From an uncultured Bacilli bacterium (GTDB taxonomy: Bacteria > Bacillota_I > Bacilli_A > RF39 > UBA660), in contig CAKOOQ010000002.1 of the NCBI GenBank assembly GCA_934098555.1, positions 1-63,500 on the forward strand: 63,500 nt of DNA. The letters are read 5' to 3'. Numbering within the stretch: position 1 is the stretch's first letter; every line of letters starts with the position of its first letter. The notes under the pieces are model-generated. The model made no database searches. It was not told the origin of the DNA and was given only the letters and a program-made list of their open reading frames with translations. Below are positions 10,173 through 29,170 of this stretch, in pieces. The translations under genes and the position numbers were made by a program.

Positions 10173-10173
10173 A

Positions 10174-12061: not shown

Positions 12062-13177
12062 ATGGCAAAAAAAGTAATTGTGGGAATGAGTGGGGGAGTT
12101 GATTCCGCGGTTAGTGCTTATTTATTAAAAAAGCAAGGCTATGAAGTAGAGGGTCTTTTTATGCGCAATTGGGACGCAGGTCTTAATAATGATATTTTAG
12201 GGAATCCAACTTTAAATAATAATATTTGTCCTCAAGAACAAGATTATAATGATGCTTTAAAAACATGTGAAATACTTGGCATTCCTCTTCATCGTGTGGA
12301 CTTTATTAAAGAATATTGGGATAATGTTTTTACTTATTTTTTAAACGAATTAAAAAAAGGAAGAACCCCTAATCCTGATTTACTTTGTAATAAGTATATT
12401 AAGTTTGATGTCTTTAAAAAAGAAGCCAAAAAACTGGGTGGTGACTTTATGGCCACGGGGCATTATGTCCGATTAAAAGATGGTTTCCTTTTAAAGGGTG
12501 TGGACGAAAACAAAGATCAAACTTATTTCCTTGCCCAATTAAGTAAAGAACAATTAGAAGATGTTTTGTTTCCCGTTGGAGATTTACATAAAGAGGAAGT
12601 AAGAAAAATAGCCAGTGAATGTGGTCTAAACGTGGCAGCTAAAAAAGATTCGACAGGAATTTGCTTTATTGGTGAAAGAAATTATCAAGAGTTTATTCGC
12701 AATTATTTAAAACCTAATCCTGGAAATGTTGTGAATGTGGAAACAAAAGAAGTGATAGGAAGACACACAGGTCTTATGAATTATACTATTGGTCAAAGAA
12801 GAAATGTAGGTCTTTCGGGATTTCAAGAACGTCATTACGTCTGTGGCAAAAACGTTTCTAAAAATGAACTTTATGTGGCTTTTGGTGATGATTCTAGTTA
12901 CTTAATTAGTGATAGTTGTCTTTTAGAAGATGTCAACTTAACCATCGATAATCCGCCAAAGAAGTGTCAAGCCAAATTTCGTTACCGCGGGGAAGATTAT
13001 CCCATAGAACTTGAAATTTTACCTAATAAAATGGCTAAAGTCATTTATAAAGAAGGCGTTAAAGCCGTAACACCTGGTCAATTTTGTGTTTTCTATGACG
13101 GTGATGTTTGCTTTGGAAGTGGCATTATTAAAGAAATCTACAAAAATGATGAAAAAATATGGTATTTGAATAATTAA
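12062..13177 (+). CDS. mnmA: tRNA 2-thiouridine(34) synthase MnmA
   Basis: PP-loop VGMSGGVDSAV, NPDxLCN and DQTYFL motifs, 371 aa. Confidence 0.95.
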   Translation: MAKKVIVGMSGGVDSAVSAYLLKKQGYEVEGLFMRNWDAGLNNDILGNPTLNNNICPQEQDYNDALKTCEILGIPLHRVDFIKEYWDNVFTYFLNELKKGRTPNPDLLCNKYIKFDVFKKEAKKLGGDFMATGHYVRLKDGFLLKGVDENKDQTYFLAQLSKEQLEDVLFPVGDLHKEEVRKIASECGLNVAAKKDSTGICFIGERNYQEFIRNYLKPNPGNVVNVETKEVIGRHTGLMNYTIGQRRNVGLSGFQERHYVCGKNVSKNELYVAFGDDSSYLISDSCLLEDVNLTIDNPPKKCQAKFRYRGEDYPIELEILPNKMAKVIYKEGVKAVTPGQFCVFYDGDVCFGSGIIKEIYKNDEKIWYLNN

Positions 13178-13277
13178 GAGACCAACATGGCAATTTTAAA
13201 GTTTCTTTTTTATTGATATGATATCTTAGATACATTAAATATTCCGTATGAAAGGGAAGATTATTTTTCCCACTGAA

Positions 13278-13310
13278 GAGAGAGATGAATTTGTATCTCT
13301 CTCATTTTTT
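13278..13310 (+). terminator. rho-independent terminator downstream of mnmA
   Basis: GAGAGAGAT-gaatttgt-ATCTCTCTC followed by TTTTTT. Confidence 0.5.
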
Positions 13311-13362
13311 GTAGTAAAATAAAAGCTTTGCGAAGATTTAATACCATATTAAAAAGTGACTC

Positions 13363-13383
13363 GGCGAAAATTAGGCGAAATTA
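13363..13383 (+). repeat. tandem GGCGAAA(A)TTA repeat upstream of the island's first gene
   Basis: GGCGAAAATTA and GGCGAAATTA are directly abutted, about 5 nt upstream of a TTGAAC -35-like hexamer. Relatively GC-rich for the region. Confidence 0.4.
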
Positions 13384-13441
13384 AGTTTTTGAACTATAAT
13401 AATATGTTATAATATTATTTAGTTATTTTGGGGGTGTTTTA

Positions 13442-13789
13442 ATGTATAAGTTTATAAGTATAATAAGTGCACTAATAAGACAATTCTTATTGCCAAATCC
13501 ATATATAAATTTATTTAGTCAAGAAGTATACGCTGATTTATTCAATATAATAATAGGTGGAATAATTTTACATAAGTTATCATTTTGGCTAACTGGAATG
13601 GCATATACAAGAGGTATTAATGAGCCAGCAGAAGGAAGTATTGGATATTTATTTAGCTATATAATACTAACTTTATTAATTACGTTTCTAAGTAAAATAA
13701 TAAGTAATATTTGGATAATGGTTTGTGCGTTTTTAATTATTTATATTTTGTTTTGTATTGTTGTAAGCAAAACTTTTAACAGACCATAA
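13442..13789 (+). CDS. small 3-TM membrane protein (115 aa), unknown function
   Basis: GGGGG RBS and three hydrophobic helices. It has its own terminator at about 13860-13887. First gene of the low-GC island. Confidence 0.5.
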   Translation: MYKFISIISALIRQFLLPNPYINLFSQEVYADLFNIIIGGIILHKLSFWLTGMAYTRGINEPAEGSIGYLFSYIILTLLITFLSKIISNIWIMVCAFLIIYILFCIVVSKTFNRP

Positions 13790-13859
13790 GTATTTTTAAT
13801 AAATTTAATAAGAATAGCAGACAGATACTCTAAAAAGTGCTATCCTTATAATAGCGATT

Positions 13860-13887
13860 GATACTATTATTATAGTATCTTTTTTTG
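13860..13887 (+). terminator. rho-independent terminator
   Basis: GATACTAT-tatt-ATAGTATC followed by TTTTTTT. Confidence 0.5.
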
Positions 13888-13901
13888 TTAGGAGAAATGT
13901 T

Positions 13902-14849
13902 ATGCAAAAAATACTAAAATCAGGGATGACAATTGGAATATCAATGATGTCTGTTTTAATTCCAGATGTGAAAGAATTAATAATTTCAATAGTAGAGAAA
14001 TTATTTGATTTAGATACAGTTGAAATAAATCCTATTTATTGTAGTGGTTTGGGTTTTTTATTATTTATTATTTGTTTAATTACTTATATTAAATATAATG
14101 ATAGAGATAGAATAATTAACATAGTTGGATTCGGCAATAATGAATATTGGGAAAGAAATAATAAGAACGTTGAGACAATTGATGTAAGAAATTGGTTTAA
14201 TGTAAAAGATAAAGACAAAAATAAGTATTTGAAAAAAGTACTTAATGATTCTGATAATTGTGTTTACAAATATTTAGCTTCTGGCTTATCTTACACTGCA
14301 ATAGCTCCTATACCATTAGTTTCAATTATTGGGAGACACTTTTCCAAAATAAAAATAAATAATTATTATGAATATTTAAATAAAAGTTCGAATGTAAAAA
14401 AAATAAATAACTCAATATTTTTTCCTAGATTAAAACTGGAAATTACAAATAAAGATAGTTCTAATGAATACGCGTTGATATCGGTTAGCACCACAGCAAA
14501 TATTAAAAAGCATCAAATAGCACAATTTGGAGATTGTTTACACTATAATACTTACATTTCAAATCCACATCAAAACTCAATTTATTCGAAGAAGCAACTG
14601 TTTAATTATTGCAATAAAATAATTGAACAAATAAATGAAATTAGTGCTTTAAAAGAAATAAAAAGAATTTATATAGTCTTTGCAACTCAATCACCCTTAC
14701 CATTCGAAATTGGTAAACAACTAAACGATAGGATGGCAAAAGAAGTTATTATTTGTCATTATCAAAACGATTCTTGCGTTCCTTATGAGTGGGGAATAGC
14801 TCTAAATGGAAAAAATAAAGAAAAATATATTGACTTAAAGAAGGTATAA
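13902..14849 (+). CDS. TM-SAVED-like CBASS effector (putative)
   Basis: AGGAG RBS. N-terminal hydrophobic segments (strong helix at aa 45-64). The C-terminal 240 aa or so contain two copies of the CARF/SAVED-like strand-Pro-helix-Gly pattern (AIAPIPLVSIIGR at aa 133-145, YIVFATQSPLPFEIGKQL at aa 257-274) and end in a Y/W-rich strand. The stop is 1 nt from the cyclase ATG. Confidence 0.55.
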   Translation: MQKILKSGMTIGISMMSVLIPDVKELIISIVEKLFDLDTVEINPIYCSGLGFLLFIICLITYIKYNDRDRIINIVGFGNNEYWERNNKNVETIDVRNWFNVKDKDKNKYLKKVLNDSDNCVYKYLASGLSYTAIAPIPLVSIIGRHFSKIKINNYYEYLNKSSNVKKINNSIFFPRLKLEITNKDSSNEYALISVSTTANIKKHQIAQFGDCLHYNTYISNPHQNSIYSKKQLFNYCNKIIEQINEISALKEIKRIYIVFATQSPLPFEIGKQLNDRMAKEVIICHYQNDSCVPYEWGIALNGKNKEKYIDLKKV

Positions 14850-14850
14850 A

Positions 14851-16242
14851 ATGGCAATAAAATTAGAAGATTTGAAAAAAGTTGATTTTTCACAAATGTT
14901 AAATACATTTTATATAAACAATGTAATTCTACCTTTAGAAAAAGTCGAAGAACTTAAAGAGAAGAAAGATTTAAATATTAGAAGATTAAAAGAGGGATTA
15001 GAAGAGTATAACATAGAAAATTCTACGGAATACAAAATAGATGAGTTTGTACTTCAAGGTAGCATTGCTATGGGTACTGCAGTATCAGCAGATGAAAAGA
15101 ATTATGATATTGATATAGGTGTTATTATGGATAAATCTGCTTTACCAGATGGTACATTGAGTGCTAAAAAAATAATATCGGAATCTTTGAAGAAGAAATG
15201 TTATAACATGAAAAACAACCCAGACCCAAATGGTAATAGTATTACAATTGAATATGAAGAAGGTTATCATTTGGATTTTGCACTTTATGGTAAGAAAGAT
15301 AAAAAATATTATCATTGTGGAACAACAAGTTGGGATGAAAGAAATCCTAAGGCTATTTCTTGGTGGTTTAATAATCAAAATCAAAAGTATAATAATAGAT
15401 TGCAAATGATGACTAAGTTCTTAAAATTTTTTTGTAAGCAAGATAGTGATTGGATAATGCCGGGCGGTTTAATAATAAGTGTTTTAGTAGATGAAGCTAT
15501 AAAAAAAGAAGACTTATCATTATCATACGATGTTTTATTAAAGAATATTGTAAATAGTATTGTTAAAAGATTAAGATATGATAAGAGTGTATATAATCCT
15601 GTTAATTTAAGTAAGAATCTAATTGTAAAACAAAAAGATGTGCAAAAATTAAAGAATTTACATAATAGGTTAGAAAATAGGATTACAAAAGTTAACAATT
15701 TAACAATTAATAGTACAAGCGTAGAAATATACGAGGCTTGGAATTATTTCTTTGGTGAAGAATATTTTTCTGATGATTTTGAATTAAAAATAATACAATG
15801 TGAAGATAATGAAGAATATATAAATACCTATTTTGATATTTTAAGAGATAATAACACTAATAATTTGATTAAATGCCAATTATCATCTAAAGAAGGAAGT
15901 ACTGATGGTAGAACTATTAGAAATTATGAATCTAATATGCCTTTAAGTGTTTCTAGGTATAAAGATGAGCGACTAATATTTACAGCTCATCCGATGATTT
16001 CAGGACAGTATACAATATTATGGAAAATTAGAAATAATGGAAAAAAGGCTGTAGAGAATAATTCATTACGTGGAAATATAGTTTATTCTAATACTGCTTA
16101 TAATTTTAACTATATTGATATAAATGGAAATACAAGATATGAAAATATATCTTTTCCAGGTCATCATTATATTGATTGTTATGTAATAAAGGATGACTAT
16201 GTTATTCAATCGGAAAGATTTTTAGTGAATTTAACAGAATAA
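14851..16242 (+). CDS. CD-NTase/SMODS-type cyclic (oligo)nucleotide synthase with C-terminal AGS-C-like sensor domain
   Basis: Pol-beta NTase signature G70-S71...(14 aa)...D86-I-D88 and third acidic residue D142 (HLDFALY). SMODS-like helix NPKAISWWFNNQNQKYNNRLQMMTKFLKFF. C-terminal 170 aa beta-rich domain with YTILWKIRNNGKKAVENNSLRGNIV ... FPGHHYIDCYVIKDDYVIQ. Confidence 0.7.
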   Translation: MAIKLEDLKKVDFSQMLNTFYINNVILPLEKVEELKEKKDLNIRRLKEGLEEYNIENSTEYKIDEFVLQGSIAMGTAVSADEKNYDIDIGVIMDKSALPDGTLSAKKIISESLKKKCYNMKNNPDPNGNSITIEYEEGYHLDFALYGKKDKKYYHCGTTSWDERNPKAISWWFNNQNQKYNNRLQMMTKFLKFFCKQDSDWIMPGGLIISVLVDEAIKKEDLSLSYDVLLKNIVNSIVKRLRYDKSVYNPVNLSKNLIVKQKDVQKLKNLHNRLENRITKVNNLTINSTSVEIYEAWNYFFGEEYFSDDFELKIIQCEDNEEYINTYFDILRDNNTNNLIKCQLSSKEGSTDGRTIRNYESNMPLSVSRYKDERLIFTAHPMISGQYTILWKIRNNGKKAVENNSLRGNIVYSNTAYNFNYIDINGNTRYENISFPGHHYIDCYVIKDDYVIQSERFLVNLTE

Positions 16243-16467
16243 ATAGTATTTATTTAAAATATGGAACACTTTAAATAAATATAATATGTTTTATTAATAA
16301 AAAAGTTTTCGTTAATCTGAAATATGCTAGATTAAATGTGGGAACTTCCTTTATTTTGCTTACAGACTTACAATTAAAAGTTATATTAATAATTATCAAG
16401 CTGGTTACTTTATTTGAAAAAACAAGTTATAATATTTAATCGTACATTATAAGGTAAGGTTGATAGT

Positions 16468-16869
16468 ATGGCTAATATATTCAGAGTAGTAAAAGATAAA
16501 AACTATACAATTGTTAATAATGAATATTTAAAGAATAAAAATCTTAGAGTAGATAGTATAGGATTATTAACTATAATACTATCATTACCATCAGACTTTA
16601 ATATAACTATCAAAGGTTTAATTAGTCTTACACATCAAAAAGCAAATTATAGAGCTATTAAAGTAATGCTTGATAATTTAAAAGAAAATGGTTATTTAGA
16701 AATAACTAAGTTAAGAGATGAAAAAGGTCATTTTTTCTTTAACTATATATTTTTTGAAAGTAATAGACCTAATCCACTATACACTTTTTATATAGTGGAC
16801 GACGCTAATCAGAGTGTTATAAACGATAATAAAACTAATTCTCCACTACCAGCAAAAAAGGAGTGGTAA
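16468..16869 (+). CDS. winged-helix DNA-binding protein of the phage/plasmid replication-organiser N-terminal type
   Basis: Pattern F-x-V...YTIVNNEYLKNKNL...IGLLTIILSLPSDFNITIKGL...LKENGYLEITKLRDEKGHF is typical of Firmicutes mobile-element wHTH proteins. Confidence 0.5.
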   Translation: MANIFRVVKDKNYTIVNNEYLKNKNLRVDSIGLLTIILSLPSDFNITIKGLISLTHQKANYRAIKVMLDNLKENGYLEITKLRDEKGHFFFNYIFFESNRPNPLYTFYIVDDANQSVINDNKTNSPLPAKKEW

Positions 16870-16974: not shown

Positions 16975-17769
16975 ATGAACAGATTAAACGAATTATTACA
17001 AGAATTAGGAATTTCCAAAGTGCGATTGGCTAAATATTTAGGTGTATCAAGACAGATGGTTTATAATTATCTTGAACTTGATGACATTAATAAATGGCCT
17101 AAAGAAAAGAAAATTTTGCTTTACCGTTTACTAGATATTAATGATGATAAAAATCAATCTATTGATTCCATAAAAGTAACAACCGATTATCTTATGAGTG
17201 TTGAAAATAGATTAAATACCGGTGTTAAAGGAACTACCAATATTTCTAACTATTTTGACTTAAAGAATTTAAATAAAGAATCTCAAATTCTTATCACCAA
17301 CATTTTAAATTTACTAAGAGAAAGGTTAGGGGATGATAAGAAAAAACAAGAAAATTATTATGCCTTTTTATACCTTTATCATATGCTTCAATCTATGGAC
17401 AATGTTCCTGAAATAAAATATATTTTTGGATATATGTCAAAGGCTACGGGATTCACAAATCCGGAAGAATTTAAGTTTAATGAAGATAGACAATTTATCT
17501 TTGAAGGAATTTTGTACTCTGCCCTAACGCTTTATAACAATGGGGGAGCCTCACGTAGCAAACTTGCCCTATCGCATAAACGGTTTGTTCAAGAGATAGA
17601 AAAACAAAATGAAGAAAAATTAAGTCGTACCCAACAATTATTTACTTTGAGAACACAAGCTTTAAAGGAATTAGGCTATACAGAGATGAATGAATCTAAT
17701 GCCTCAGAAATTATAGAAAAAATTGCCGAAATTGAATCACGTGGTTCAATTATGAATGCTGACGAATAA
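16975..17769 (+). CDS. HTH (XRE-like) DNA-binding protein with 200-aa C-terminal domain
   Basis: N-terminal LNELLQELGISKVRLAKYLGVSRQMVYNYL helix-turn-helix. The rest is unrecognised. Confidence 0.6.
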   Translation: MNRLNELLQELGISKVRLAKYLGVSRQMVYNYLELDDINKWPKEKKILLYRLLDINDDKNQSIDSIKVTTDYLMSVENRLNTGVKGTTNISNYFDLKNLNKESQILITNILNLLRERLGDDKKKQENYYAFLYLYHMLQSMDNVPEIKYIFGYMSKATGFTNPEEFKFNEDRQFIFEGILYSALTLYNNGGASRSKLALSHKRFVQEIEKQNEEKLSRTQQLFTLRTQALKELGYTEMNESNASEIIEKIAEIESRGSIMNADE

Positions 17770-18025: not shown

Positions 18026-18053
18026 AAGTTGCATAATATATATTATGTTAACC
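18026..18053 (+). other. dif-like XerC/XerD recombination site (attL of prophage)
   Basis: AAGTTGCATAA-TATATA-TTATGTTAACC. The central hexamer is identical to B. subtilis dif. The right arm matches TTATGT(A/T)AA of the B. subtilis and E. coli dif XerD arms. The left arm ends in GCATAA as in E. coli dif. Reference sequences are quoted from memory. Confidence 0.6.
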
Positions 18054-18068
18054 GTGATATTTTAAATT
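18040..18068 (+). repeat. 29-bp direct repeat, left copy (att core)
   Basis: ATATTATGTTAACCGTGATATTTTAAATT is identical to 26124-26152. Confidence 0.9.
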
Positions 18069-18346
18069 AAATGCAGTTCGCTATACTGCTCTTGTTCTCT
18101 TTTTTTATAGATTTCTAAAAGTTCGATACGTTGTTTTATTAATTCTTTATAAAACATAAGTTCTTTCATAGAATAACACGACAACATTGCATAGCGTTTG
18201 TAATATTCATGATGACCATAAACCTTACAAAAATTATAAGCGCATACTAACAAATCATATCGATTTTTTAAATAAGTTAAATTATTACAAGAACTAACTT
18301 CTTTTACAAACTTCTTTTCATTTTCAGATAAACCTTTATACATCAT
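18062..18346 (-). CDS. phage hypothetical protein (94 aa)
   Basis: ORF overlapping the Rep stop by 11 nt. Last gene before attL. Confidence 0.45.
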   Translation of the reverse strand: MMYKGLSENEKKFVKEVSSCNNLTYLKNRYDLLVCAYNFCKVYGHHEYYKRYAMLSCYSMKELMFYKELIKQRIELLEIYKKREQEQYSELHLI

Positions 18347-18965
18347 AGTAAGACATTACCCTTTCATACGGCTCATTATGTTTTTGCAAAGCCCTTATAA
18401 ATGTCACAGTCGAACGTCTATAAATATCATACAAACCATTTAAAGCCACATACCTAACAAAATCTTGTTCATCTAAGTAACCAACAAAACTATCAATGTA
18501 ATCCAACAATTCTAAAACCTTTTCACTCTCATCTTTACCGGAATTTTTAATATAATTTTTTAACTTTTGTTTGAGACTACCCTGCACATTTCTAACGTCA
18601 TATTGATACTTATCAGGTTCATTATAATGAATCAAATAAAGTAAACTACGTTCTAAACTTCGACATTTTTGTATATAATTAATTTCAATACCTAAATCTT
18701 TAGCTAAAGCCGAATTCCATACTGGATTATTAAAACGGATAACAACATGTGTATGAACTTTTTTTAGATTTCCATCTTCATCTAAATCACTATCATGATT
18801 AATCGAAGCATAATCGTATGAACGTTTTACAATCTCAATTGCTTCTTTATGGCTTTCGTCCTCATTTGGATAAAGTAACAAGCAAAACTTTCTATCTCTA
18901 AACTTTTCAATAGCCAAACTATCACCCTCCCCTATTTTGACACAAATTTTTTTAAATTGACACAA
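18336..18965 (-). CDS. rolling-circle replication initiator (HUH endonuclease, plasmid Rep_2/RepB-like)
   Basis: HUH motif KKVHTHVVI (H71-T-H73) and Tyr motif SLLYLIHYNE about 40 aa downstream. TTG start with no clear RBS, so the start is uncertain. Confidence 0.7.
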   Translation of the reverse strand: MCQFKKICVKIGEGDSLAIEKFRDRKFCLLLYPNEDESHKEAIEIVKRSYDYASINHDSDLDEDGNLKKVHTHVVIRFNNPVWNSALAKDLGIEINYIQKCRSLERSLLYLIHYNEPDKYQYDVRNVQGSLKQKLKNYIKNSGKDESEKVLELLDYIDSFVGYLDEQDFVRYVALNGLYDIYRRSTVTFIRALQKHNEPYERVMSYYDV

Positions 18966-19436
18966 TGGTATGTGTCAGAAAAAAGCCTTTATTTATCGTA
19001 CTTAATAGACCTTTGACACATGACACACAGATTGCTATTAGTCGTAGTATAGCAATCTATAATTTATAATCTTTTATATTATAATATTTATATTATTAAA
19101 TTACTTATATATTAAATAATTTAATTTTTTAGCTGGTTAGGTGCGAAAGCACGATTATAACATCAAAAAGAGATAATTATAAAAACAGTTCATTAAAATT
19201 TTTTTGATATTGCTTTTTGTAACAAGATAGATACTCTTTTTAATGTTAAAAAATTATACTTGCTTCCACTTCGTCAAGGCTATTGCAGTTATCAAGCAGA
19301 ATATCAACGAAGCAGCAAAACCTTGACAAAGATACGAATTTCTTTCAAATAAGTTTTTAAAAAATGGATTAAGTTCTATTAAATTAATAACCAGCTTAAA
19401 AAATCATAAAGATTGCTATTTTGTTGTATATAAAAA
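18966..19436 (-). other. phage intergenic region (candidate origin / packaging-signal hairpins)
   Basis: Non-coding 470 bp with GACAC/GTGTC repeats, the hairpin GATTGCTAT-N10-ATAGCAATC (19030-19057), the GC-richer hairpin GTCAAGG...CCTTGAC (19273-19327), and inverted AGCTGGTTA copies at 19130 and 19388. Confidence 0.45.
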
Positions 19437-19718
19437 CTAGCTTGCATTAATTGGCAATTTTCGAATAATCCACATCGAAAAATGATAAATATGATCAAAA
19501 TTCGCGGCTAAAATTACTAAAGGAACTAGCGTTTTAATCGTCGAAATACGAACAAAAAAACCTAATAAATCCAAATGATCAAAAATAAGATTAACAAAAC
19601 CGTTAAGACTTGTTAAAATTGAAACATCTAGTTGAGGTAAACTTGGCAACACAGCAAAAATCAAATCAACTAATAATTTAGCTAAATCTAATATAAAAGT
19701 TGTAACCATCACTATCAA
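19437..19718 (-). CDS. small polytopic membrane protein (pVI-like minor coat candidate)
   Basis: 93 aa, very hydrophobic. It overlaps the stop of the upstream large gene by 4 nt, the position expected for pVI. Confidence 0.4.
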   Translation of the reverse strand: MIVMVTTFILDLAKLLVDLIFAVLPSLPQLDVSILTSLNGFVNLIFDHLDLLGFFVRISTIKTLVPLVILAANFDHIYHFSMWIIRKLPINAS

Positions 19719-21499
19719 ACCTTCTTTCGATTTCTATATTCACGATGAGTTTTATGGGCTGTAACAGATTGATGAACTTGATTATTATCATCAATTGTAT
19801 AATTTTGACTAGCTGATAAAATATCCGTTTCAAACGTATCATTATTACCAAAAACACGATTATAAATATTAGAACAATAATTAAAAAAACTTAACATCAG
19901 CAAAGCATCTACACACATCAAATAAATATCATGCATATTTTTAATATTACTATCATTTAACAAACTAGCTAAATCAAACGAGCCGGCCGAAATGATTGTT
20001 CCGTCAAAATTAGCAACTTTAAAATCAGGCCACGAAATCACATAAGAACCAGTATCCGTCAACTCGGTAAATCTTTCTAAAAATGTAATTATCCAAGTAA
20101 AAGGATAACTTAAAAAGCCAAATTGATTAGTTAAACTCTCATTCACGCCTTTAAACCAGTTCGAAAGGTCCTCTTTTGAAGGAACAAACAAAGACCTCAA
20201 CATATTGCGAAAATTAGACCAAAAATCCTCTGTACTTTTTTTAAAAGAATCAAAAAAGTTAGAAATTGTGTCTGCAACAACCTCATTCGAAGACTTTGAA
20301 GTAAAATTATAAGTTGCCTTAGCAACATTACCATTTGAATCAACAATTCTAAAATATAAAGTATGTTTACCAAAATTAACATTACTAAACGTATAATGAT
20401 TCGTTGGAATATCAATCCAAGAACCATCGTCAAGTTTCAAATAGTATTTTTCAATTTTACCAGACATGGCATAACTATCACGTAAATCGACATAAATATT
20501 ACTATCATTATAAGAAACAATATAACGTAAAACCGGTAACAAAGATGTTTTAACATCAACATTAAAAGTTGAAAGAGGTGTATTTGAACCGTCTTTATAA
20601 ACGGCTTTTGCTGTACCAGAATAAGAACCATTACTAAAACCGGTTAGCGTTACAGATTTCTCAGTCGTATAAACATAATCATAGCTACCCAATGTATAAT
20701 AATATCCAACAACGTTATCCTCATCTGTAGCATTAAAATTTAATGTGATATCCGAACCACTAACCGAACTTGTTACATTTAAAAGACCTAAGTTATCACT
20801 TTCATAATTAATATCTGATGAAAGATATAAATAATATATATTTTCAATATAATCCGTTGCAGAATCCGTTTGAGCATATGCTTTATTATCTAAATCAACA
20901 AACAAACTAAAGAATTCAATATATTTTTTAGGAACACGACAACTAATCACAGCACTCGGAAAATCAGAATTGGAGCTTGTTGTTAAACAATCATATGGCT
21001 TATATGTTTCGTTATTTGCATCACCAAACCTCGATTGCACACTAAAATGTAATCTATTAAAAATTTGATAGCTTTCAAAAATACCGGCTTGTATTTCATT
21101 ATTTTTTGCTGAAGCATACATTCTAAAATATAAAGTATAAAAATTATTATCATTTGAAAGTATTCCTTGATTAAAAAAATTTTCATAAGAAAAACGATAA
21201 GAATTTGTTGTTAAATAATAATCTGTTAACTCATTTGCTTTTACATAAACAGGAATACGATAACCTGTAAAATTTGGATACAAATTACTTATTTTTTTAT
21301 CATTTAAATAATCAAGTTTCAAATAATCAAGGTTAGAATAATTAAAGTTTTGATAAGTATCAGAATTATTAAACCTATAATAAAGATATTTAGGTCTTAT
21401 CTGAACAGGAGTTAAAGCATTAACATGAGTAATATCAAAAAATAAAGTTACGACACTCAATGTTGCAAATATAAAAATCGTTTCTAATATTCTTTTCAT
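19715..21499 (-). CDS. large secreted phage protein (pIII-like adsorption / minor coat candidate)
   Basis: 594 aa with an N-terminal signal peptide (IFIFATLSVVTLFF...VNA), Ig/Fn3-like beta-rich repeats in the middle and a C-terminal hydrophobic segment. Confidence 0.45.
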   Translation of the reverse strand: MKRILETIFIFATLSVVTLFFDITHVNALTPVQIRPKYLYYRFNNSDTYQNFNYSNLDYLKLDYLNDKKISNLYPNFTGYRIPVYVKANELTDYYLTTNSYRFSYENFFNQGILSNDNNFYTLYFRMYASAKNNEIQAGIFESYQIFNRLHFSVQSRFGDANNETYKPYDCLTTSSNSDFPSAVISCRVPKKYIEFFSLFVDLDNKAYAQTDSATDYIENIYYLYLSSDINYESDNLGLLNVTSSVSGSDITLNFNATDEDNVVGYYYTLGSYDYVYTTEKSVTLTGFSNGSYSGTAKAVYKDGSNTPLSTFNVDVKTSLLPVLRYIVSYNDSNIYVDLRDSYAMSGKIEKYYLKLDDGSWIDIPTNHYTFSNVNFGKHTLYFRIVDSNGNVAKATYNFTSKSSNEVVADTISNFFDSFKKSTEDFWSNFRNMLRSLFVPSKEDLSNWFKGVNESLTNQFGFLSYPFTWIITFLERFTELTDTGSYVISWPDFKVANFDGTIISAGSFDLASLLNDSNIKNMHDIYLMCVDALLMLSFFNYCSNIYNRVFGNNDTFETDILSASQNYTIDDNNQVHQSVTAHKTHREYRNRKKV

Positions 21500-21502
21500 A
21501 CT

Positions 21503-22069
21503 CTACCTCCTTCTTTTAAACTCAATAGCTAAAAATATTAATAAAATAGCTATAGTAATCATTAAAAAATATGGTTTTAATTCATCTAATGTTAAACCAT
21601 TTGTTGAAGCGTTTGTATCGTTTGATGAATTATCATTAACTTTTTTATCGTGATAATTTGTTACGTATGAACCATTAAAACTCAAATTAGACCAACCAGA
21701 CGTGCTTTTATAAGTAGAATAAATACCTAATGAATCTTGCTCAAAAATATAACACTGCGCGGTCAAATGACCGTTAAATGAAGAACGATTAACACTAAAA
21801 GAAGAACCAGAACCAGTTTTATGATTGGTAGATGTAATAGCATCATCATTTAAAAAACATAAACGTAATTGTTTATCAGATTCAAGAACAGTACGACCTA
21901 TAACATAATAATCTAAAAATGAAGAATACGAAAACCAAAGTTCCCTTTTAGCAAACGTCTCAACATAATCGGGTACATCGTAAAACTTAAAAGTAGATGC
22001 ACTAACAGAAATTGTTTGAAGTGATAAAGATATAATCATAATGGATAAAAAATAAATAATCTTACGCAT
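21503..22069 (-). CDS. phage membrane-anchored secreted protein
   Basis: Likely start at MRKIIYFLSIMIISLSL (signal peptide). C-terminal TM plus basic tail (FLMITIAILLIFLAIEFKRRR), a coat-protein-like topology. Confidence 0.45.
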   Translation of the reverse strand: MRKIIYFLSIMIISLSLQTISVSASTFKFYDVPDYVETFAKRELWFSYSSFLDYYVIGRTVLESDKQLRLCFLNDDAITSTNHKTGSGSSFSVNRSSFNGHLTAQCYIFEQDSLGIYSTYKSTSGWSNLSFNGSYVTNYHDKKVNDNSSNDTNASTNGLTLDELKPYFLMITIAILLIFLAIEFKRRR

Positions 22070-22073
22070 ATTA

Positions 22074-22226
22074 TCACAATACTTTCTTTTTATTACCACC
22101 GATAAAGTCAAGCATTAAATTAATTAATCTGTTAGCAATTTCAAAAACTAAATAAATTGGAAAAGCTACAACAAGTAAAGAAGCAATGCAATTAACAATA
22201 ACTTGGTAATCAACGTTTACTATCAT
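22074..22226 (-). CDS. small TM protein (50 aa) overlapping the 3' end of the pI ATPase gene, unannotated
   Basis: The ATG lies inside the last codons of the ATPase gene in another frame. Product MIVNVDYQVIVNCIASLLVVAFPIYLVFEIANRL... Confidence 0.3.
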   Translation of the reverse strand: MIVNVDYQVIVNCIASLLVVAFPIYLVFEIANRLINLMLDFIGGNKKKVL

Positions 22227-22935
22227 AAATATCAACACCTTTACTTTCAATTTTTAAATTTTTGTTTTCAATAACTTTATAAGTATCAAACCTTTTAAAC
22301 GACAAAGGATTTTTAAAGTATCTAAATACCCTTTTGACGGTACCTTTTAAATTCGTTCCAGTACTCTCTTCACCGTCAATACTATTTCGGTCGATAAGAC
22401 TATTTTTTTGTAAAAAACCAAATAGCTTTTTTTCACAATAAATTACAACATCAAATTGCTCACGTAACTGTTTGGCCATCCGGCCAAACACTTGACTCGT
22501 AGCAACAATATGAATACGTTGTTTACGTTGTTGAGCTATTTGAGTCATAACATCCATATCAATATTTTTGCTACCTAATGAATTAAAATAAAGTTGAATC
22601 TCATCGATTAAAAAGATAACTCCTTGTTTACCATTTTTATACTTCGTTAAATCCTTTGCTTCTTGAAATAAAAATACTCGTTCATTATCAAAAGGATAAT
22701 CTGTTAGTTCTAAATTCGTAACAATTTTACAATTAGGATACAACTTTAACAATTTATATACATAATTTACAGCTGATAAAGTTTTACCAGAACCTTGAGG
22801 CCCACAAAAAATACAAAGGCCATCAGGTCGAAAGTAATCAGGATTTTCTCTATAAAAATCACGTTGATACTTAAGTTGTTTAAAAATATTTAAAGGCCCT
22901 AGCTTTTCTTTTAAAGCATAAGCACTAACCGCCAT
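22210..22935 (-). CDS. Zot/pI-like morphogenesis ATPase (inovirus hallmark)
   Basis: Walker A GPQGSGKT (aa 45-52) and Walker B VIFLIDEIQ. At 241 aa it has no TM segment of its own. Confidence 0.75.
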   Translation of the reverse strand: MAVSAYALKEKLGPLNIFKQLKYQRDFYRENPDYFRPDGLCIFCGPQGSGKTLSAVNYVYKLLKLYPNCKIVTNLELTDYPFDNERVFLFQEAKDLTKYKNGKQGVIFLIDEIQLYFNSLGSKNIDMDVMTQIAQQRKQRIHIVATSQVFGRMAKQLREQFDVVIYCEKKLFGFLQKNSLIDRNSIDGEESTGTNLKGTVKRVFRYFKNPLSFKRFDTYKVIENKNLKIESKGVDIYDSKR

Positions 22936-22943
22936 AAAATCAC

Positions 22944-23033
22944 CTACTTATTTTTATGAAAAATTTTATTCCAAGCCCAATTAAAAAACTTGTATATTAA
23001 AAATACTAAAAAGAAACTTAACAGGCTACTCAT
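22944..23033 (-). CDS. 29-aa hydrophobic peptide (pVII/pIX-like candidate), unannotated
   Basis: MSSLLSFFLVFLIYKFFNWAWNKIFHKNK. Its stop abuts the RBS of the ATPase gene. Confidence 0.3.
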   Translation of the reverse strand: MSSLLSFFLVFLIYKFFNWAWNKIFHKNK

Positions 23034-23037
23034 AACA

Positions 23038-23241
23038 TCATTCATCTTTTTGCTCCTCTCTTTTCTCATCAATTTTCTTACTTAAATTTTTAAGCAATGC
23101 TTTTCTTTCTGGTTTACTTAATTTATTAAATTTATGTAGCAAAACATATAAATACTCTAATTGGTCTAAAGTTAAATTATCTAAATTATTCATAATCACT
23201 AAATTTTTAGAAAAAAAGGAATGATAAAACACGCATATCAC
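23038..23241 (-). CDS. phage hypothetical protein (67 aa)
   Basis: ORF in the structural block. No family recognised. Confidence 0.4.
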   Translation of the reverse strand: MICVFYHSFFSKNLVIMNNLDNLTLDQLEYLYVLLHKFNKLSKPERKALLKNLSKKIDEKREEQKDE

Positions 23242-23259
23242 TCCTAATTTTCCAACGTA

Positions 23260-23475
23260 TTATAAACGAATACGTCCAGCCGCAACAGCGCTTGTGAAAG
23301 CATTAACAGCTTTACGAACTCCTAACCAAAGTAAGAAGAAGCCCATACCTACACCAACAACAGAAGCTAAAACATTTAAAACTTGAGCTGTAGTAATAGA
23401 ACTTGTTAGCGCTGTAATGAAAGCAGTAAAATCAATCGTTGTAGGTTGAGTTTCTTGAGATGCTTCCATAGACAA
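23260..23475 (-). CDS. major coat protein-like (pVIII-like)
   Basis: 71 aa with an acidic/polar N-terminal part, an Ala/Val/Gly-rich TM helix (VLASVVGVGMGFFLLWLGV) and a basic C-terminus (RKAVNAF...GRIRL). GGAGG RBS. Noticeably GC-richer than its neighbours. Confidence 0.6.
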   Translation of the reverse strand: MSMEASQETQPTTIDFTAFITALTSSITTAQVLNVLASVVGVGMGFFLLWLGVRKAVNAFTSAVAAGRIRL

Positions 23476-23653
23476 ACCTCCTTTTCATTCTTTTTGTCCT
23501 TTTTTATAAAAAAGGAGCGTCTTACTAAAAGCGGTCAAACAGTAAGATAACAGTTTATAAGCTGCTGGTTTTTAATTTTAAGTATATTAGAATAAAAGAG
23601 TTTATAAGATAAAAATATATATAAATTTTTACTTAAAATCACCGCAAATTTTT

Positions 23654-23923
23654 TTAATATCGTTTATTTTTATTTTTTTCAACATAAATATAAACAACTT
23701 TACGACCAAAATGTTTTTTGAACCACAAACGAATACTTCGAAAAAAATATTTAATCTTAGTTTTTAAATTTCTAGAGGGTTTAAGATTGTAATAGCCTAT
23801 ATATTCTTCACCAAAACCATTATAGCTACCAATTTTCAAAGGTATTGAATCTTTATAAGGTTCATAACCAAATCTACATCTATAACAATCATGATTGTAA
23901 CTATAATAAATTAATAATCGCAT
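23654..23923 (-). CDS. phage hypothetical basic protein (89 aa)
   Basis: ORF overlapping the upstream gene. Lys/Arg/Tyr-rich. Confidence 0.35.
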   Translation of the reverse strand: MRLLIYYSYNHDCYRCRFGYEPYKDSIPLKIGSYNGFGEEYIGYYNLKPSRNLKTKIKYFFRSIRLWFKKHFGRKVVYIYVEKNKNKRY

Positions 23924-24197
23924 TGTTATACTTAATACCAGTAATTTTAGTCTTTGGCTTCATTGGATTCATAGGATTTTCAACGGTTTCAACCATTAAA
24001 GTGCATTCCTTGTTTACCATTTTTTCATCAAGCTTATCAAAAGCAGTAATCGGCAAAAATGCATAAAGTACAATGTATCCTTTTACCTTTTCAGATTTAC
24101 AAGGCTTATCGGTTGCAATATAATCGATTCTTGTATAAGGTTCTTTACCTTTCGGACAACATTTTGTTATCGTTGTCAAATTAACTTTTAATTCCAT
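23901..24197 (-). CDS. phage protein, possible ssDNA-binding (pV-like) by size and position only
   Basis: 98 aa, GGAGCG RBS, located upstream of the coat genes. No motif-level support. Confidence 0.3.
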   Translation of the reverse strand: MELKVNLTTITKCCPKGKEPYTRIDYIATDKPCKSEKVKGYIVLYAFLPITAFDKLDEKMVNKECTLMVETVENPMNPMKPKTKITGIKYNNAIINLL

Positions 24198-24253
24198 TTT
24201 TTACGCTCCTTTTCTATCTTTTGTTTTATGGCACAAAAGCTAAAGCCAAGAAA

Positions 24254-24469
24254 TTACCAGAAACCTCTATTAGGCGAATAAACAACATTATTTACATAAA
24301 CATTCTCTAAATGAAGTTGATTCAAAAGAATATTGAAAAATTTTAAAGCTTGTTCTTTTGTTTTAAAATGAAAAGTTGCGAATGATAAATTACCGTCTAA
24401 AAAATGAATTTTAATAAACCTATCATCTAGCTCCAAAATGTGTAAATAATTATCATTTATAAAATACAT
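24254..24469 (-). CDS. phage hypothetical protein (71 aa)
   Basis: ORF overlapping the upstream gene by 13 nt. Confidence 0.4.
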   Translation of the reverse strand: MYFINDNYLHILELDDRFIKIHFLDGNLSFATFHFKTKEQALKFFNILLNQLHLENVYVNNVVYSPNRGFW

Positions 24470-24957
24470 ACGTCTTTTTTTACAAGATTAATTGACTTAT
24501 TTAAAACATCACGACACAGGTTTACAGCTTCGGTTTTATCACAAAAAGAAAATTCAATTTCATCTAAACCAGAAGAGTCATTAAAGCCTAATTTGATAAT
24601 ATACAAGCCTAAAGCGTCTTTATAAGCTTTAATAAATTTCACTTTTAAATAATCAATAGTAAATTCCATATCCTCAACTACTTCCTCAACTTCCTCATCA
24701 GTCATACATAAAAACTTTTTAATAATATATCTTACATCCGAATATGATTTACAAGTACCGTCATATAAATAAATGTAGCCCTCTTCACCAGTTAAAATAT
24801 CAAAAGCTTTTGCCATTTCGGAATCGGAATCACAAAAGTAAACACAATAAGCATTTATAAAGTTTTCATATGTTAAGTCAATGTCGTTTTCTTTCATATA
24901 ATCGTTAACTTTTCTCATATTCATCATTTCATAAACAATATTAATCATCTTTATCAC
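24457..24957 (-). CDS. phage hypothetical protein (166 aa), first gene of the leftward operon
   Basis: AGGAGTGA RBS. Divergent from the XRE gene. Confidence 0.45.
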   Translation of the reverse strand: MIKMINIVYEMMNMRKVNDYMKENDIDLTYENFINAYCVYFCDSDSEMAKAFDILTGEEGYIYLYDGTCKSYSDVRYIIKKFLCMTDEEVEEVVEDMEFTIDYLKVKFIKAYKDALGLYIIKLGFNDSSGLDEIEFSFCDKTEAVNLCRDVLNKSINLVKKDVCIL

Positions 24958-24962
24958 TCCTT

Positions 24963-25002
24963 TTATATACGTTTAACGCATTTATATATCAATTATATAC
25001 GT
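24963..25002. promoter_or_regulatory. candidate operator repeats in the phage switch region
   Basis: TTATATACGT occurs twice, 30 bp apart (24963 and 24993), between the divergent genes. Confidence 0.35.
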
Positions 25003-25062
25003 GTGACGTTTACTTGTCAATACGCAATAAGTATATTTTGTAAAATAACTTTGGTGAGGAAA

Positions 25063-25296
25063 ATGAATATAAATAGATTGAAAGAAATAAGAGAAGATAA
25101 AGATTATAAACAAAGTGAGGTTGCAAAAATTCTAAATGTAACACAAGCACAATATAGCAGATATGAAACAGGTGAAAACACAATTCCACTTGACAAAATA
25201 TATAAACTAGCAGAATTTTACAAAACATCAATAGATTATCTAGTTTATAGAACAGATGAAAGAAATCCTTATCCAAAAAGTATAATGAAAAATTGA
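25063..25296 (+). CDS. XRE-family HTH repressor
   Basis: MNINRLKEIREDKDYKQSEVAKILNVTQAQYSRYETGENTIPLDKIYKLAEFYKTSIDYLV. GGTGAGGA RBS before the ATG at 25063; the ORF track starts earlier, at 25003. Confidence 0.8.
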   Translation: MNINRLKEIREDKDYKQSEVAKILNVTQAQYSRYETGENTIPLDKIYKLAEFYKTSIDYLVYRTDERNPYPKSIMKN

Positions 25297-25307
25297 AAGA
25301 GGAAAAA

Positions 25308-25460
25308 ATGAACAATCAAAGTTTAGAAGAAATTAATCAAAGTTTAAAAACAATAAAAGATATTATTGTTGAAGAATATAAAAGAAAAAAAAGTATCGAA
25401 ATGTTAAAAATTGCTATAGCCCTTCTTATATTTGCTATTATCTACATTAGATACTCATAA
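25308..25460 (+). CDS. small C-terminally TM-anchored protein (50 aa), unannotated
   Basis: AGAGGAAAAAATG start. Product ...KKSIEMLKIAIALLIFAIIYIRYS. Confidence 0.35.
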   Translation: MNNQSLEEINQSLKTIKDIIVEEYKRKKSIEMLKIAIALLIFAIIYIRYS

Positions 25461-25537
25461 AAAAAGATTGCCTAAAACCAATTTGCAATCTTAAAATAAA
25501 GGACTTATTTTTCAAGCATCAATAGGAGGTGACAACA

Positions 25538-25630
25538 TTGAAAAATACAATTAATTCAAAAAAACACAAAATTTTAACAATATGTATAATTCTATTCTTT
25601 GTTTTATTAGCAATTTCAACATTAAAATAA
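25538..25630 (+). CDS. 30-aa hydrophobic peptide, unannotated
   Basis: Strong AGGAGGTGA RBS 7 nt upstream of a TTG. Product (M)KNTINSKKHKILTICIILFFVLLAISTLK. Confidence 0.3.
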   Translation: MKNTINSKKHKILTICIILFFVLLAISTLK

Positions 25631-25651
25631 AACATCGATAATTAATTAAGC

Positions 25652-25714
25652 CCTTTACGATACCTAAATTACATTTTTATAATAAATTAAGTATCGCAAA
25701 AGGTTTATTTTTTT
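25652..25714 (+). terminator. long-stem terminator
   Basis: CCTTTACGATAC ... GTATCGCAAAAGG (12-13 bp stem, one bulge) followed by a T-run. Confidence 0.4.
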
Positions 25715-25905
25715 ATATACTCATACATCGAAATTTATTTATAAATACCATGTCAAATAATTATAATCAATAGGAATCGAACCTATACCCCTCTGTCTTA
25801 GTTTCGGAATTGGCGTACGCACCCAGACTCTTTCCAAGAACTCTATTTTATAATTATCCAACATGCTACCTATAAAGGTAACATTTAAAAATCAAACTAT
25901 GTTAT

Positions 25906-26082
25906 TTATTTTTTTAACCTTTTATACAACTTACAACCCATATAACTAATCATTTTTAATAAAATCAATATTGCAACAAGAAGGATAAATCCAATTATAT
26001 ATTCAAAATCATTAGTAATAAAATAAAAAATAAATGAATCAATAAAAATAATTAAGCATAACAGAATTTCATAATTATTCAT
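25906..26082 (-). CDS. 58-aa two-TM protein, unannotated
   Basis: AAAGGGG RBS. Product MNNYEILLCLIIFIDSFIFYFITNDFEYIIGFILLVAILILLKMISYMGCKLYKRLKK. It falls just under the 60-aa ORF cutoff. Confidence 0.3.
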   Translation of the reverse strand: MNNYEILLCLIIFIDSFIFYFITNDFEYIIGFILLVAILILLKMISYMGCKLYKRLKK

Positions 26083-26109
26083 AAAGTAACCCCTTTACAC
26101 ATTTTGATA

Positions 26110-26137
26110 TTTTCATAACGTAAATATTATGTTAACC
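26110..26137 (+). other. degenerate dif-like site (attR)
   Basis: TTTTCATAACG-TAAATA-TTATGTTAACC. The XerD-type arm is identical to attL, the central region matches 5 of 6, and the left arm is degenerate (the CATAA is displaced by 2 nt). Confidence 0.45.
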
Positions 26138-26152
26138 GTGATATTTTAAATT
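26124..26152 (+). repeat. 29-bp direct repeat, right copy (att core)
   Basis: Identical to 18040-18068. Confidence 0.9.
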
Positions 26153-28233: not shown

Positions 28234-28270
28234 AATAAGGAAGAATGATTCAATTTCTTCCTTATTTTTT
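28234..28270. terminator. bidirectional terminator
   Basis: Perfect 12-bp stem AATAAGGAAGAA-N9-TTCTTCCTTATT followed by a T-run. It overlaps the recombinase stop codon. Confidence 0.6.
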
Positions 28271-29170
28271 GGCATGAGGATGGTAATGAGTGTACTCCTC
28301 TTTGTTTTTTTGACTCGTAACATGCGTGTATATTTCCGTTGTGGCAATGTTGCTATGACCAAGAAAAGTTTGAATGACGCGAAGGTTGGCGCCATTTAAG
28401 AGTAAATGCGTTGCAAAAGAATGTCTTAACATATGAGGATTTACCTTTCTATCAATTGTCTTTAAAGATATTTCATTTAAAAGTTTATTGACACCTTGTC
28501 TTGTGATAGGCGTTCCACGATTATTTAAGAAAAGTTCGTCGTATACTTTACCCTTTTTAATGAGTTTACACCGGTATTTTTCTATATAAAGTTTTAAATA
28601 ATATAAAGAGGTTTCGTTTAAAAAAACAATTCTTTCTTTTGCCCCTTTTCCTTCCACCCTAACCCATTCATTTTCAAAGTCAATATTTTTAAGTTTTAAA
28701 GAAACGAGTTCACTAATGCGCAAACCAGTCGCATACAAAACTTCAAGCATAGTTTTCGTTCTGTAATCATAGTCCGTTTTTAAAGGAAAAGAAAGAAGTT
28801 TATCGACTTCTTCATAAGAAAGATAATTAGGTAGATGTTCCTTTACTTTAGGAAAATAAATACAATCACAAACATTTTCTATGCCTTCTTTATCTTCCGT
28901 TAAAAAATGATAAAAGCCTTTTAAAGTGGATAAATAATGGGAACGTGTCCGTTCATTTTGACTCTTTTTTTGTAAGAAAGATAAAATATCTTCTTTTTTT
29001 AAGTTTAAAGCAGACGATGTTGTCTTAAAAAAACACCTAAATTCATCTAAATCGTTTTTATAAGACAAAACCGTATTTTCACTTAATTTTTTTTCATATT
29101 GAATATAATCAAGATACATCTTAATTTCGTTATTCATAATCATCACAAGATAAGTATAAAGGCTTTTCAA
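28262..29170 (-). CDS. tyrosine recombinase, XerD/XerC family
   Basis: N-terminal SAM-like domain (LSENTVLSYKNDL) and C-terminal catalytic LRHSFATHLL ... LGHSNIATTEIYTHV. The start is probably MIMNNE, about 27 nt into the ORF. Confidence 0.85.
   Translation of the reverse strand: MKSLYTYLVMIMNNEIKMYLDYIQYEKKLSENTVLSYKNDLDEFRCFFKTTSSALNLKKEDILSFLQKKSQNERTRSHYLSTLKGFYHFLTEDKEGIENVCDCIYFPKVKEHLPNYLSYEEVDKLLSFPLKTDYDYRTKTMLEVLYATGLRISELVSLKLKNIDFENEWVRVEGKGAKERIVFLNETSLYYLKLYIEKYRCKLIKKGKVYDELFLNNRGTPITRQGVNKLLNEISLKTIDRKVNPHMLRHSFATHLLLNGANLRVIQTFLGHSNIATTEIYTHVTSQKNKEEYTHYHPHAKK

Follow-up and report, generated by a model that had tools for sequence, protein, structure and literature searches.

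The use of host Xer recombinases by inoviruses at the chromosomal dif site is already established. Three categories of Xer-exploiting integrative mobile elements (IMEX), represented by CTX, VGJ and TLC, have been described, all with proteobacterial hosts (review PMC5357621 and a 2026 preprint). Those found by us in the searchable literature were likewise all proteobacterial (Vibrio, Xanthomonas, Neisseria, Enterobacter, Legionellales); no report of an IMEX from Bacillota or other Gram-positive bacteria was found there, and absence from that literature is no proof. VGJphi is an integrase-less inovirus with a single dif-like phage attachment site (attP) on the double-stranded replicative form, a non-canonical 7-bp central region and a well conserved XerD arm; its heterology lies by the XerD side, XerC catalyses, and the prophage lies between two Xer-type sites, so that excision is possible in principle (PMC5357621). 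In TLCphi and the gonococcal genetic island (GGI) the XerC arm and the central region are conserved, the XerD arm is degenerate and an intact dif is regenerated at one end, TLCphi being XerD-first. CTXphi, also an integrase-less filamentous phage placed at dif by host Xer and able to form arrays, integrates as folded (+) single-stranded DNA from two inverted dif-like sites ~90 nt apart. The Xanthomonas phages Cf1c and phiLf are of the VGJphi type, with a 15-bp core made up of the central region and the XerD arm. Finally, ColE1 cer is a Xer site whose central region has 8 bp and where a single strand pair is exchanged; it serves plasmid multimer resolution, with accessory proteins and XerC acting first, and not phage integration.

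In this study, we analysed a stretch of 63,500 nucleotides from an uncultured Bacilli bacterium (GCA_934098555.1, contig CAKOOQ010000002.1, positions 1 to 63,500), hereafter the window, in which an inovirus-type prophage at 18026-26152 is inserted at a dif site. The comparative evidence gives good support to the reading that a temperate, integrase-less phage of this type, and thus an IMEX, lysogenises via the host Xer pair at the terminus dif, which we consider very likely. With respect to the systems above, the host phylum appears to be new, and the attP architecture and proposed crossover side, as read from the nucleotide sequences, match none of the three described categories.

Attachment sites and gene content of the prophage

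A scan of the window located an exact 29-bp direct repeat (ATATTATGTTAACCGTGATATTTTAAATT) with both copies on the + strand. No third copy was present in the window at up to 3 mismatches, and the chance expectation for a repeat of 29 bp was 0 (100 shuffles). The first-pass annotation, made from the letters of the window, had given the coordinates, sequences and direct orientation of both copies correctly. It had also recognised that the left copy lies within a 28-bp dif-like site and that the right one is preceded by a degenerate arm and an altered central region (TTTTCATAACG-TAAATA). Its count of 9 matches in the 11 positions of the XerD arm is arithmetically right against the sequences taken as the dif of Escherichia coli and Bacillus subtilis. 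The sites are the following.

18026-18053, + strand: intact chromosomal dif (attL), 28 bp, unique in the window
18026-18036: XerC/CodV-type arm of attL, AAGTTGCATAA
18037-18042: central region of attL, TATATA
18043-18053: XerD/RipX-type arm of attL, TTATGTTAACC
18040-18068, + strand: left copy of the 29-bp repeat (three final bp of the central region, the whole XerD arm and the next 15 bp)
18069-26123, - strand except the repressor: inovirus-type prophage body, 8,055 bp
26108-26137, + strand: hybrid site attR, equal to the phage attP on its left side
26108-26118: XerC-like arm of attR, TATTTTCATAA
26119-26126: 8-bp spacer of attR, CGTAAATA
26127-26137: XerD arm of attR, TTATGTTAACC
26124-26152, + strand: right copy of the 29-bp repeat, exact copy of the left one

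The attP would thus read TTTTCATAACG-TAAATA-TTATGTTAACC-GTGATATTTTAAATT-AAATGC, and the bacterial site attB, as seen in empty sites of other strains, is AAGTTGCATAA-TATATA-TTATGTTAACC-GTGATATTTTAAATT-GAAATT. Compared with dif, attP was identical in the XerD arm (11/11) and differed at one position of the central region (5/6 in the 6-bp register). Its other arm matched the XerC arm of dif at 8 of 11 positions with a spacing of 8 bp and at 2 of 11 with a spacing of 6 bp; a match of 8/11 has a P of ~0.003 per position and of ~0.014 over 5 registers.

The 20 open reading frames (ORFs) inside the element were scanned against Pfam and PHROGs, and none showed an integrase, transposase or recombinase domain; tblastn with the host Xer proteins gave no match inside the element either. 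The repeats bracket exactly a block of phage genes devoid of integrase and transposase, as the annotation had it. The following genes and ORFs were distinguished.

18062-18346, - strand: 94-aa ORF 3' of rep, with its stop codon within the repeat; no family match
18336-18965, - strand: rolling-circle initiator Rep_OBD (Pfam PF01719, E = 3.6e-17)
19437-19718, - strand: conserved 93-aa protein, just 3' of the 594-aa gene
19715-21499, - strand: 594-aa candidate adsorption (pIII-like) protein, so labelled from its size and position
between the 594-aa gene and Zot: 202-aa protein
22210-22935, - strand: Zot/pI morphogenesis ATPase, the inovirus hallmark (Pfam Zot, E = 1.5e-9; PHROG 197, E = 9e-13)
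23260-23475, - strand: 71-aa protein, hydrophobic in its core and basic at its C-terminus; candidate for the major coat protein
25003-25296, + strand: divergent Cro/CI-type helix-turn-helix (HTH) repressor (Pfam HTH_3, E = 4e-16; PHROG 8, E = 7e-24)
within the element: several small ORFs

The gene order is syntenic with that of three related prophages (L130, L132 and L158, see below) and of circular virome inoviruses in GenBank. The Zot of the window was 45-50% identical to that of circular Inoviridae genomes from rodent and pig faecal viromes in GenBank, and its Rep was 30-40% identical to the 'replication initiator protein' of faecal inoviruses from the same kind of source (circular, 4-8 kb). 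The element has the pI/Zot family, Rep family and gene order in common with the bajarodino viruses, with porcine 'Inovirus sp.' and with the inoviruses that Roux et al. (2019) described from metagenomes; the records of these faecal-virome inoviruses consist of free circles, to which neither a host nor an integration site is assigned. The 93-aa protein was 38-51% identical, and the coat candidate 46-73%, to equally placed ORFs of L130, L132 and L158 (70-81 aa for the latter). The 594-aa protein had no match in Pfam or PHROGs; it showed 27-31% identity over 99-193 aa to proteins of 414-459 aa in the same position in relatives, its C-terminal part being conserved and the remainder variable. Homologues of the repressor lie at the same end of L130 and L132. 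L132 and L158 have no counterpart of the 94-aa ORF, their att site being adjoined directly by rep. Roughly one in two of the phage ORFs had no family match. Given the likeness of Zot and Rep to those of circular Inoviridae and the lack of a recombinase domain, the element is, as judged from its genes, an inovirus-type filamentous prophage without integrase; it has Zot/pI, a size of 8.06 kb, which falls in the range of such phages (~4-12 kb), Rep_OBD and the conserved gene order. Its predicted circular form, with one copy of the repeat, has 8,084 bp.

The dif site and its occupation among strains

The 20-bp dif core (CATAATATATATTATGTTAA) was scanned against 185,579 species genomes, and at least 120 of these had a match, one each. 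Nearly all the matches listed stood in the same context (CATAA-TATATA-TTATGTTAA, preceded by CG and followed by AT), which is the canonical dif of Gammaproteobacteria and others. Among the matches listed, the nearest relative of the window was L048, a metagenome-assembled genome (MAG) of an uncultured Bacilli bacterium with 68-72% nucleotide identity in two flank genes, and its dif (ACTTCACATAA-TATATA-TTATGTTAACA) adjoins the orthologue of the left-flank gene of the window. This gene (16975-17769), directly left of dif in the window too, encodes a 264-aa protein with an N-terminal HTH and had no family match above threshold; that it keeps this place by the terminus in both genomes may have a meaning.

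The cumulative G-C curve of the window has its maximum at 17856, 170 bp from dif, the GC skew is +0.139 to the left of the site and -0.103 to the right, and the large ORFs lie mostly on the + strand to the left (10 of 12) and on the - strand to the right (21 of 27). A change of sign of the GC skew across the site was also found in L048 and in the related prophage loci L129-131 and L158, and no better dif candidate at a skew switch was seen elsewhere in the window. The 28-mer is thus a dif by sequence and position, as had been proposed in the first-pass annotation; its function as dif is predicted.

Other strains of the same species were gathered by an exact-protein look-up of the flanking genes. 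As had been anticipated, the site was found empty in some of them, namely L002, L210 (GCA_977050195.1), L213 and L215, where one 28-bp dif separates the left-flank HTH gene from zupT; its layout is the left flank, one dif with the same 15 nt, and the right flank. The site was occupied in L001, L211 and L212, with junctions as in the window and a phage 99.7-100% identical. In L002 the flanks are 100% identical to those of the window and the phage is missing, while L212 (occupied) and L215 (empty) have another flank variant in common; L212 is 99.7% identical to the window in the phage and 95.8-98.7% in the flanks. Since both flank backgrounds occur in the occupied and in the empty state, the phage has been precisely gained or lost in at least two strain backgrounds.

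Related prophages

Relatives were sought by a metagenome scan with a Zot alignment and a scan of IMG/VR. It must be noted that their attL and attR are named in the orientation in which zot is on the + strand, so that the full dif is attR, whereas on the + strand of the window attL is the intact one. Syntenic low-GC prophages of the family, at least six in number, abut dif-like sites and have either the XerD or the XerC arm in common with the host. In the first four groups below, the flanking repeats are built from the central region and a single dif arm, and the full dif is at the rep end.

L129, L130, L131 and L218: repeat of 30-37 bp; attL ...TTAATA-TTAAAAATAAT; full dif ACTTCCTATAA-TTAATA-TTATGTTAACT
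L132: repeat of 16 bp; central region of attL TTGAAA; attR full dif ACTTCCTATAA-TTGATA-TTATGTTAACT
L158: repeat of 18 bp (central region, XerD arm and 1 nt); full dif ACTTCGTATAA-TATATA-TTATGTTAACT
L264: attL ACTTCGCATAA-TGTATG-TTCTTAAATTT; attR ...TGTATG-TTATGCGATTT
L135 and L155: left end off the contig; dif directly after rep

The XerD arm is in common with the host in the window, in L158 and possibly in L123, and the XerC arm in L129-131/218, L132, L264/265 and L245-258; the intact dif stands at the rep-proximal end in both architectures. In L132 the heterology, at central position 5, stays with the XerD-side flank, so that the crossover there lies on the XerC side. The 4,333-bp contig L265 is a circular permutation of the L264 prophage (79-81% identity) and joins the right and left ends of the latter via one attP (ACTTCGCATAA-TGTATG-TTCTTAAATTT); from this alignment, the two are a matched pair of integrated and free forms. 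The circular contig L258 (76-bp terminal overlap) has an attP-like sequence, AGTTCATATAA-CATAAT-TTCTCCTTTAA. Among the first six circular relatives from GenBank, a dif-like candidate was found in L123 only (bajarodino virus 41; AAACATATTAT-ACAACA-TTATGTAAACT, ~90 bp 3' of rep), and it is weak; the five others have hosts of different GC content.

The high-GC relatives L143, L145, L147 and L153 are flanked by variable direct repeats of 14-17 bp at non-dif sites, which their conserved ends (GGCAGATTCT... and ...TTCTTGACATTTGCC) abut. L145 (6872-14705) encodes an IS30-like transposase with HTH_38 and rve domains (12701-13699) and a Rep_trans initiator. Insertion in this group looks transposase-mediated, with unusually long target duplications. 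As relatives of the L145 type, with a DDE enzyme, lie elsewhere and the integrase-less ones lie at dif, they serve as an internal control for dif targeting.

Several further traits of these loci were observed. The identity between phage and host beyond the arm, 15 nt in the window (18054-18068 and 26138-26152), is of ~15-20 nt in some lineages (L130, 8117-8133 and 13920-13936, ~20 nt) and of 1 nt in L132 and L158. In L048, ATATTTTAAA stands at the same offset from the XerD arm as in the window. Possible readings of this identity are an accessory sequence conserved in the host and a remnant of an attP once captured from the host. L129, L130, L131 and L218 have a second XerC-arm-like motif (AGTTCCTATAA) in direct orientation inside the phage, 32 nt past the attL arm (8166-8176 in L130). 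L155 (1-10027) carries two different inovirus-like modules in tandem 5' of a single dif (ACTTCAAATAA-TATATG-TTATGTTAACT), with rep genes at ~4650-5111 and 9439-9987; its layout resembles an IMEX array, and no obvious degenerate dif was found at the junction between its modules. L160 is a related integrase-less prophage whose 21-bp repeat (1074-1094 and 7046-7078) lies in a perfect 13-6-13 palindrome, CAATTGCACAAAA-TCAAAG-TTTTGTGCAATTG, unlike canonical dif and without a match in the other loci, and a divergent Xer-like gene of 324 aa (9266-10240) is 2.2 kb away; the site may be an alternative dif/Xer system exposed by phage integration. In L132, tblastn with the host Xer gave a marginal match (E = 0.025 in a tiny database, 24% identity over 104 aa), which was taken as noise.

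Host recombinases and proposed routes of integration

The two Xer-type tyrosine recombinase genes announced by the first-pass annotation are indeed present in the window.

28262-29170, - strand: first host Xer, more XerD/RipX-like (Pfam Phage_integrase and SAM_1; NCBIfam XerD 300.6 bits, XerC 286.3 bits)
39377-40258, - strand: second host Xer, XerC/CodV candidate (NCBIfam XerC 305.5 bits, XerD 302.5 bits)

The proteins are 41% identical to each other, both score above the PRK00283 cut-off, and the best match of both in PDB is E. coli XerD (1a0p; 174.6 bits for the first and 156 for the second). The first gene lies 2.1 kb from dif when the prophage is discounted and is present in the empty-site strains too. 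A XerD-like gene was likewise observed 1-4 kb from dif in each related Bacilli locus examined (L048, L129-131, L135 and L158), with positions 4-798 in L048, 15598-16410 in L130, 3610-4452 in L158 and 6445-7332 in L135; in L210 it is at 13205-14110. Linkage of xer and dif is familiar from the systems XerS/difSL and XerH/difH; these have a single recombinase, whereas the linkage in the window occurs in a genome with two Xer paralogs.

In the integration that we propose, these XerC/XerD (CodV/RipX-type) paralogs would carry out recombination between the single dif of the chromosome and the dif-like attP borne by the double-stranded replicative form. The rep-proximal end (attL, 18026-18053) would then hold an intact dif, by which dimer resolution would be preserved, and the hybrid attR would stand at the other end. 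The attP would have in common with dif the XerD arm, the three bp of the central region that adjoin it and another 15 bp, and its XerC-like arm would be offset by 2 bp, giving the 8-bp spacer. Most likely, the XerD/RipX-like enzyme would exchange a single pair of strands, and replication or a second exchange would then resolve the Holliday junction. Related phages would have reached the mirror solution, with the XerC arm in common with the host and the crossover on the XerC side. The Xer proteins are the putative catalysts, and the XerD/RipX-like one the putative first to act.

In this regard, the central region reads TATATA in attL and TAAATA in attR, in the window as well as in L211 and L212, which places the crossover 3' of central position 3. 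Xer recombinases cleave at defined positions, of the top strand for XerC-type and of the bottom strand for XerD-type enzymes (PMC9226527; PMC5357621). The crossover interval thus includes the XerD bottom-strand position and excludes the XerC top-strand one, and a single exchange on the XerD side predicts exactly the products observed. A XerC-only exchange followed by replication, as in the CTX and VGJ mode, predicts TAAATA in attL, which was not seen, and was rejected.

The phage is closest to VGJphi in being an integrase-less inovirus with a single dif-like attP, a well conserved XerD arm, a non-canonical central region (8 bp instead of 7) and a prophage between two Xer-type sites. It is not of the VGJphi type, since its homology is on the XerD side, its heterology and the two extra bp are by the XerC side, and its junctions put the crossover at the XerD end of the central region. 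The host differs as well, being a member of Bacillota with Xer proteins of the CodV/RipX type; direct activation of these by the translocases SftA or SpoIIIE has not been found (PMC5357621). With TLCphi and the GGI the phage has in common one consensus and one degenerate arm and the intact dif regenerated at one end, but with the arms exchanged, so that it is their mirror. The TLCphi/GGI architecture itself is shown by L129-131/L218, L132, L264/L265 and L245-258, although the crossover of L132 is on the XerC side and TLCphi is XerD-first. No homologue of XafT (DUF3653), the activation factor of the TLCphi type, was matched among the phage ORFs of the window. As regards CTXphi, with whose arrays the tandem modules of L155 may be compared, no second inverted dif-like site or arm was found within the phage near attP. 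A folded single-stranded attP of that type was rejected, as no inverted site was present and the attP region folds no better than shuffled sequences (z = -0.11). The asymmetry of the two sites had been likened in the first-pass annotation to that of CTX/TLC-type elements, and this did not hold: there is no folded two-site attP, it is the XerC arm that is degenerate, contrary to TLC, and the proposed crossover falls on the XerD side, contrary to VGJ and CTX. The site also resembles cer in its 8-bp central region and in the single strand pair whose exchange is proposed here.

From these comparisons we put forward, tentatively and at rather less than even chances, a fourth mode of Xer exploitation. 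It would be the mirror of VGJphi, with a perfect XerD/RipX arm plus the XerD-proximal half of the central region, a XerC-like arm at 8-bp spacing, a translocase-independent exchange of a single strand pair by XerD/RipX, lineages switching the arm that is mimicked, and L160, with its 13-6-13 site, possibly pointing to an undescribed dif/Xer system.

Some observations weigh against the proposed integration or leave parts of it less secure. When the prophage is removed in silico, the skew peak becomes a flat plateau of ~4 kb that starts at dif and extends to the right, so that the position of the site is consistent with the terminus but not sharp. The assignment of each Xer to an arm is by analogy with E. 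coli and B. subtilis. The binding of a second recombinase at the offset arm (2/11 at 6 bp; P ~0.014) is a conjecture. The identity of 15 bp past the XerD arm is superfluous for Xer recombination. As to a circular form of the window phage, the attP junction 46-mer had no match in IMG/VR, an exact-protein look-up of its Zot returned integrated copies only, and a search of IMG/VR with this Zot alone gave no close relatives; for this particular phage the circle, its excision and Xer dependence are predictions.

Other explanations of the junctions were considered. A two-step Xer reaction, in which the XerC/CodV-like enzyme would exchange the top strands first and the XerD/RipX one the bottom strands second, the junctions being one segregant of a heteroduplex at central position 3, is unlikely, though less so than the others. 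A full exchange of this kind would yield attL TATATA with attR TAAATA in half of the daughters, attP does have a XerC-like arm (8/11), and in vitro CodV cleaves B. subtilis dif more efficiently than RipX (PMC5357621). This last result does not favour the XerD-first route preferred here. Against the two-step reaction, attP has its XerC-like arm 2 bp out of place, and CG stands next to the predicted cleavage site where dif has TA, which should block ligation of the top strand. Moreover, the same segregant is found in both strain backgrounds, for which the chance is ~0.25 if the integrations were independent and unselected.

We regard it as highly improbable that a phage-encoded activity, the HUH Rep or an unrecognised small protein, integrates the element and that the likeness to dif is target mimicry. 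Half or so of the phage ORFs could harbour such an activity, having no family match, and HUH endonucleases can mediate integration in other systems. Against this, exactly one Xer arm plus the central region is kept in at least six relatives despite Rep identities of 28-41%, the sequence in common with the host switches between the XerC and the XerD arm, none of the ORFs has the size or the likeness of a recombinase, and the relatives with a DDE enzyme of their own insert elsewhere. Hardly any better are the prospects of a 28-mer that is not the dimer-resolution site but an att site for another tyrosine recombinase acting in trans, for instance from a helper element. The view of the genome is of 63.5 kb and the dif function is predicted from sequence; yet the core is identical to the dif of at least 120 species, the site is at the switch of skew and strand bias here and in L048, L129-131 and L158, a single copy is conserved in all strains, and no recombinase is nearby besides the two Xer paralogs. 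The least credible is RecA-dependent homologous recombination without any recombinase site, since, even if the identity (29 bp in the window, 30-37 bp in L129-131) is longer than Xer needs, that of L132 and L158 is only 16-18 bp, confined to arm and central region and too short for efficient RecA, and dif is targeted in every case, with precise insertion in two strain backgrounds.

The window carries genes for SpoIVB, MurT and FtsW/SpoVE, which make a walled, probably sporulating Bacillota host reasonable. The MutS of the host falls into a 90%-identity protein cluster together with a protein labelled 'Candidatus Ventrenecus sp.', a genus that NCBI places in Bacteria incertae sedis. Of the original proposal of an IMEX in a sporulating Gram-positive bacterium, the IMEX part is supported, with Xer dependence as its probable component, and the type of host comes down to these genes. 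A PilC-like T2SSF gene at 53071-54657 indicates type IV pilus or competence-pilus machinery in the host; pili of this kind are the usual class of inovirus receptor. Just left of the terminus there is a block of the cyclic-oligonucleotide-based anti-phage signalling (CBASS) type (13278-16856; 3.6 kb, 25% GC), with the following genes.

13902-14849: SAVED protein
14851-16242: cGAS/DncV-like nucleotidyltransferase (CD-NTase, DncV-like)
16468-16869: 133-aa ORF

This block varies among strains, being present in the window and L214 and absent from L210, L212, L213 and L215. Its borders showed no clear direct repeats or dif-like sites, and the alignment gave no crisp boundaries.

Altogether, these loci suggest that the Xer/dif strategy known from the cholera phage is also that of the inoviruses without integrase in uncultured gut Bacillota, a phylum where the control of Xer differs, no direct activation of CodV/RipX by SftA or SpoIIIE being known. 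They provide natural attB, attP, attL and attR substrates from several species for the study of Gram-positive Xer recombination, offer a route to annotate dif and the terminus in MAGs, and account for many of the 'non-canonical att sites' of metagenomic inoviruses. The interest for the fields of Xer recombination, filamentous phages and gut mobile elements is thus moderate to high. To our knowledge, inoviruses have hardly been studied in gut Firmicutes, and the presence and absence of the prophage among strains indicates that temperate filamentous phages enter and leave the chromosome in Firmicutes of the mammalian gut.

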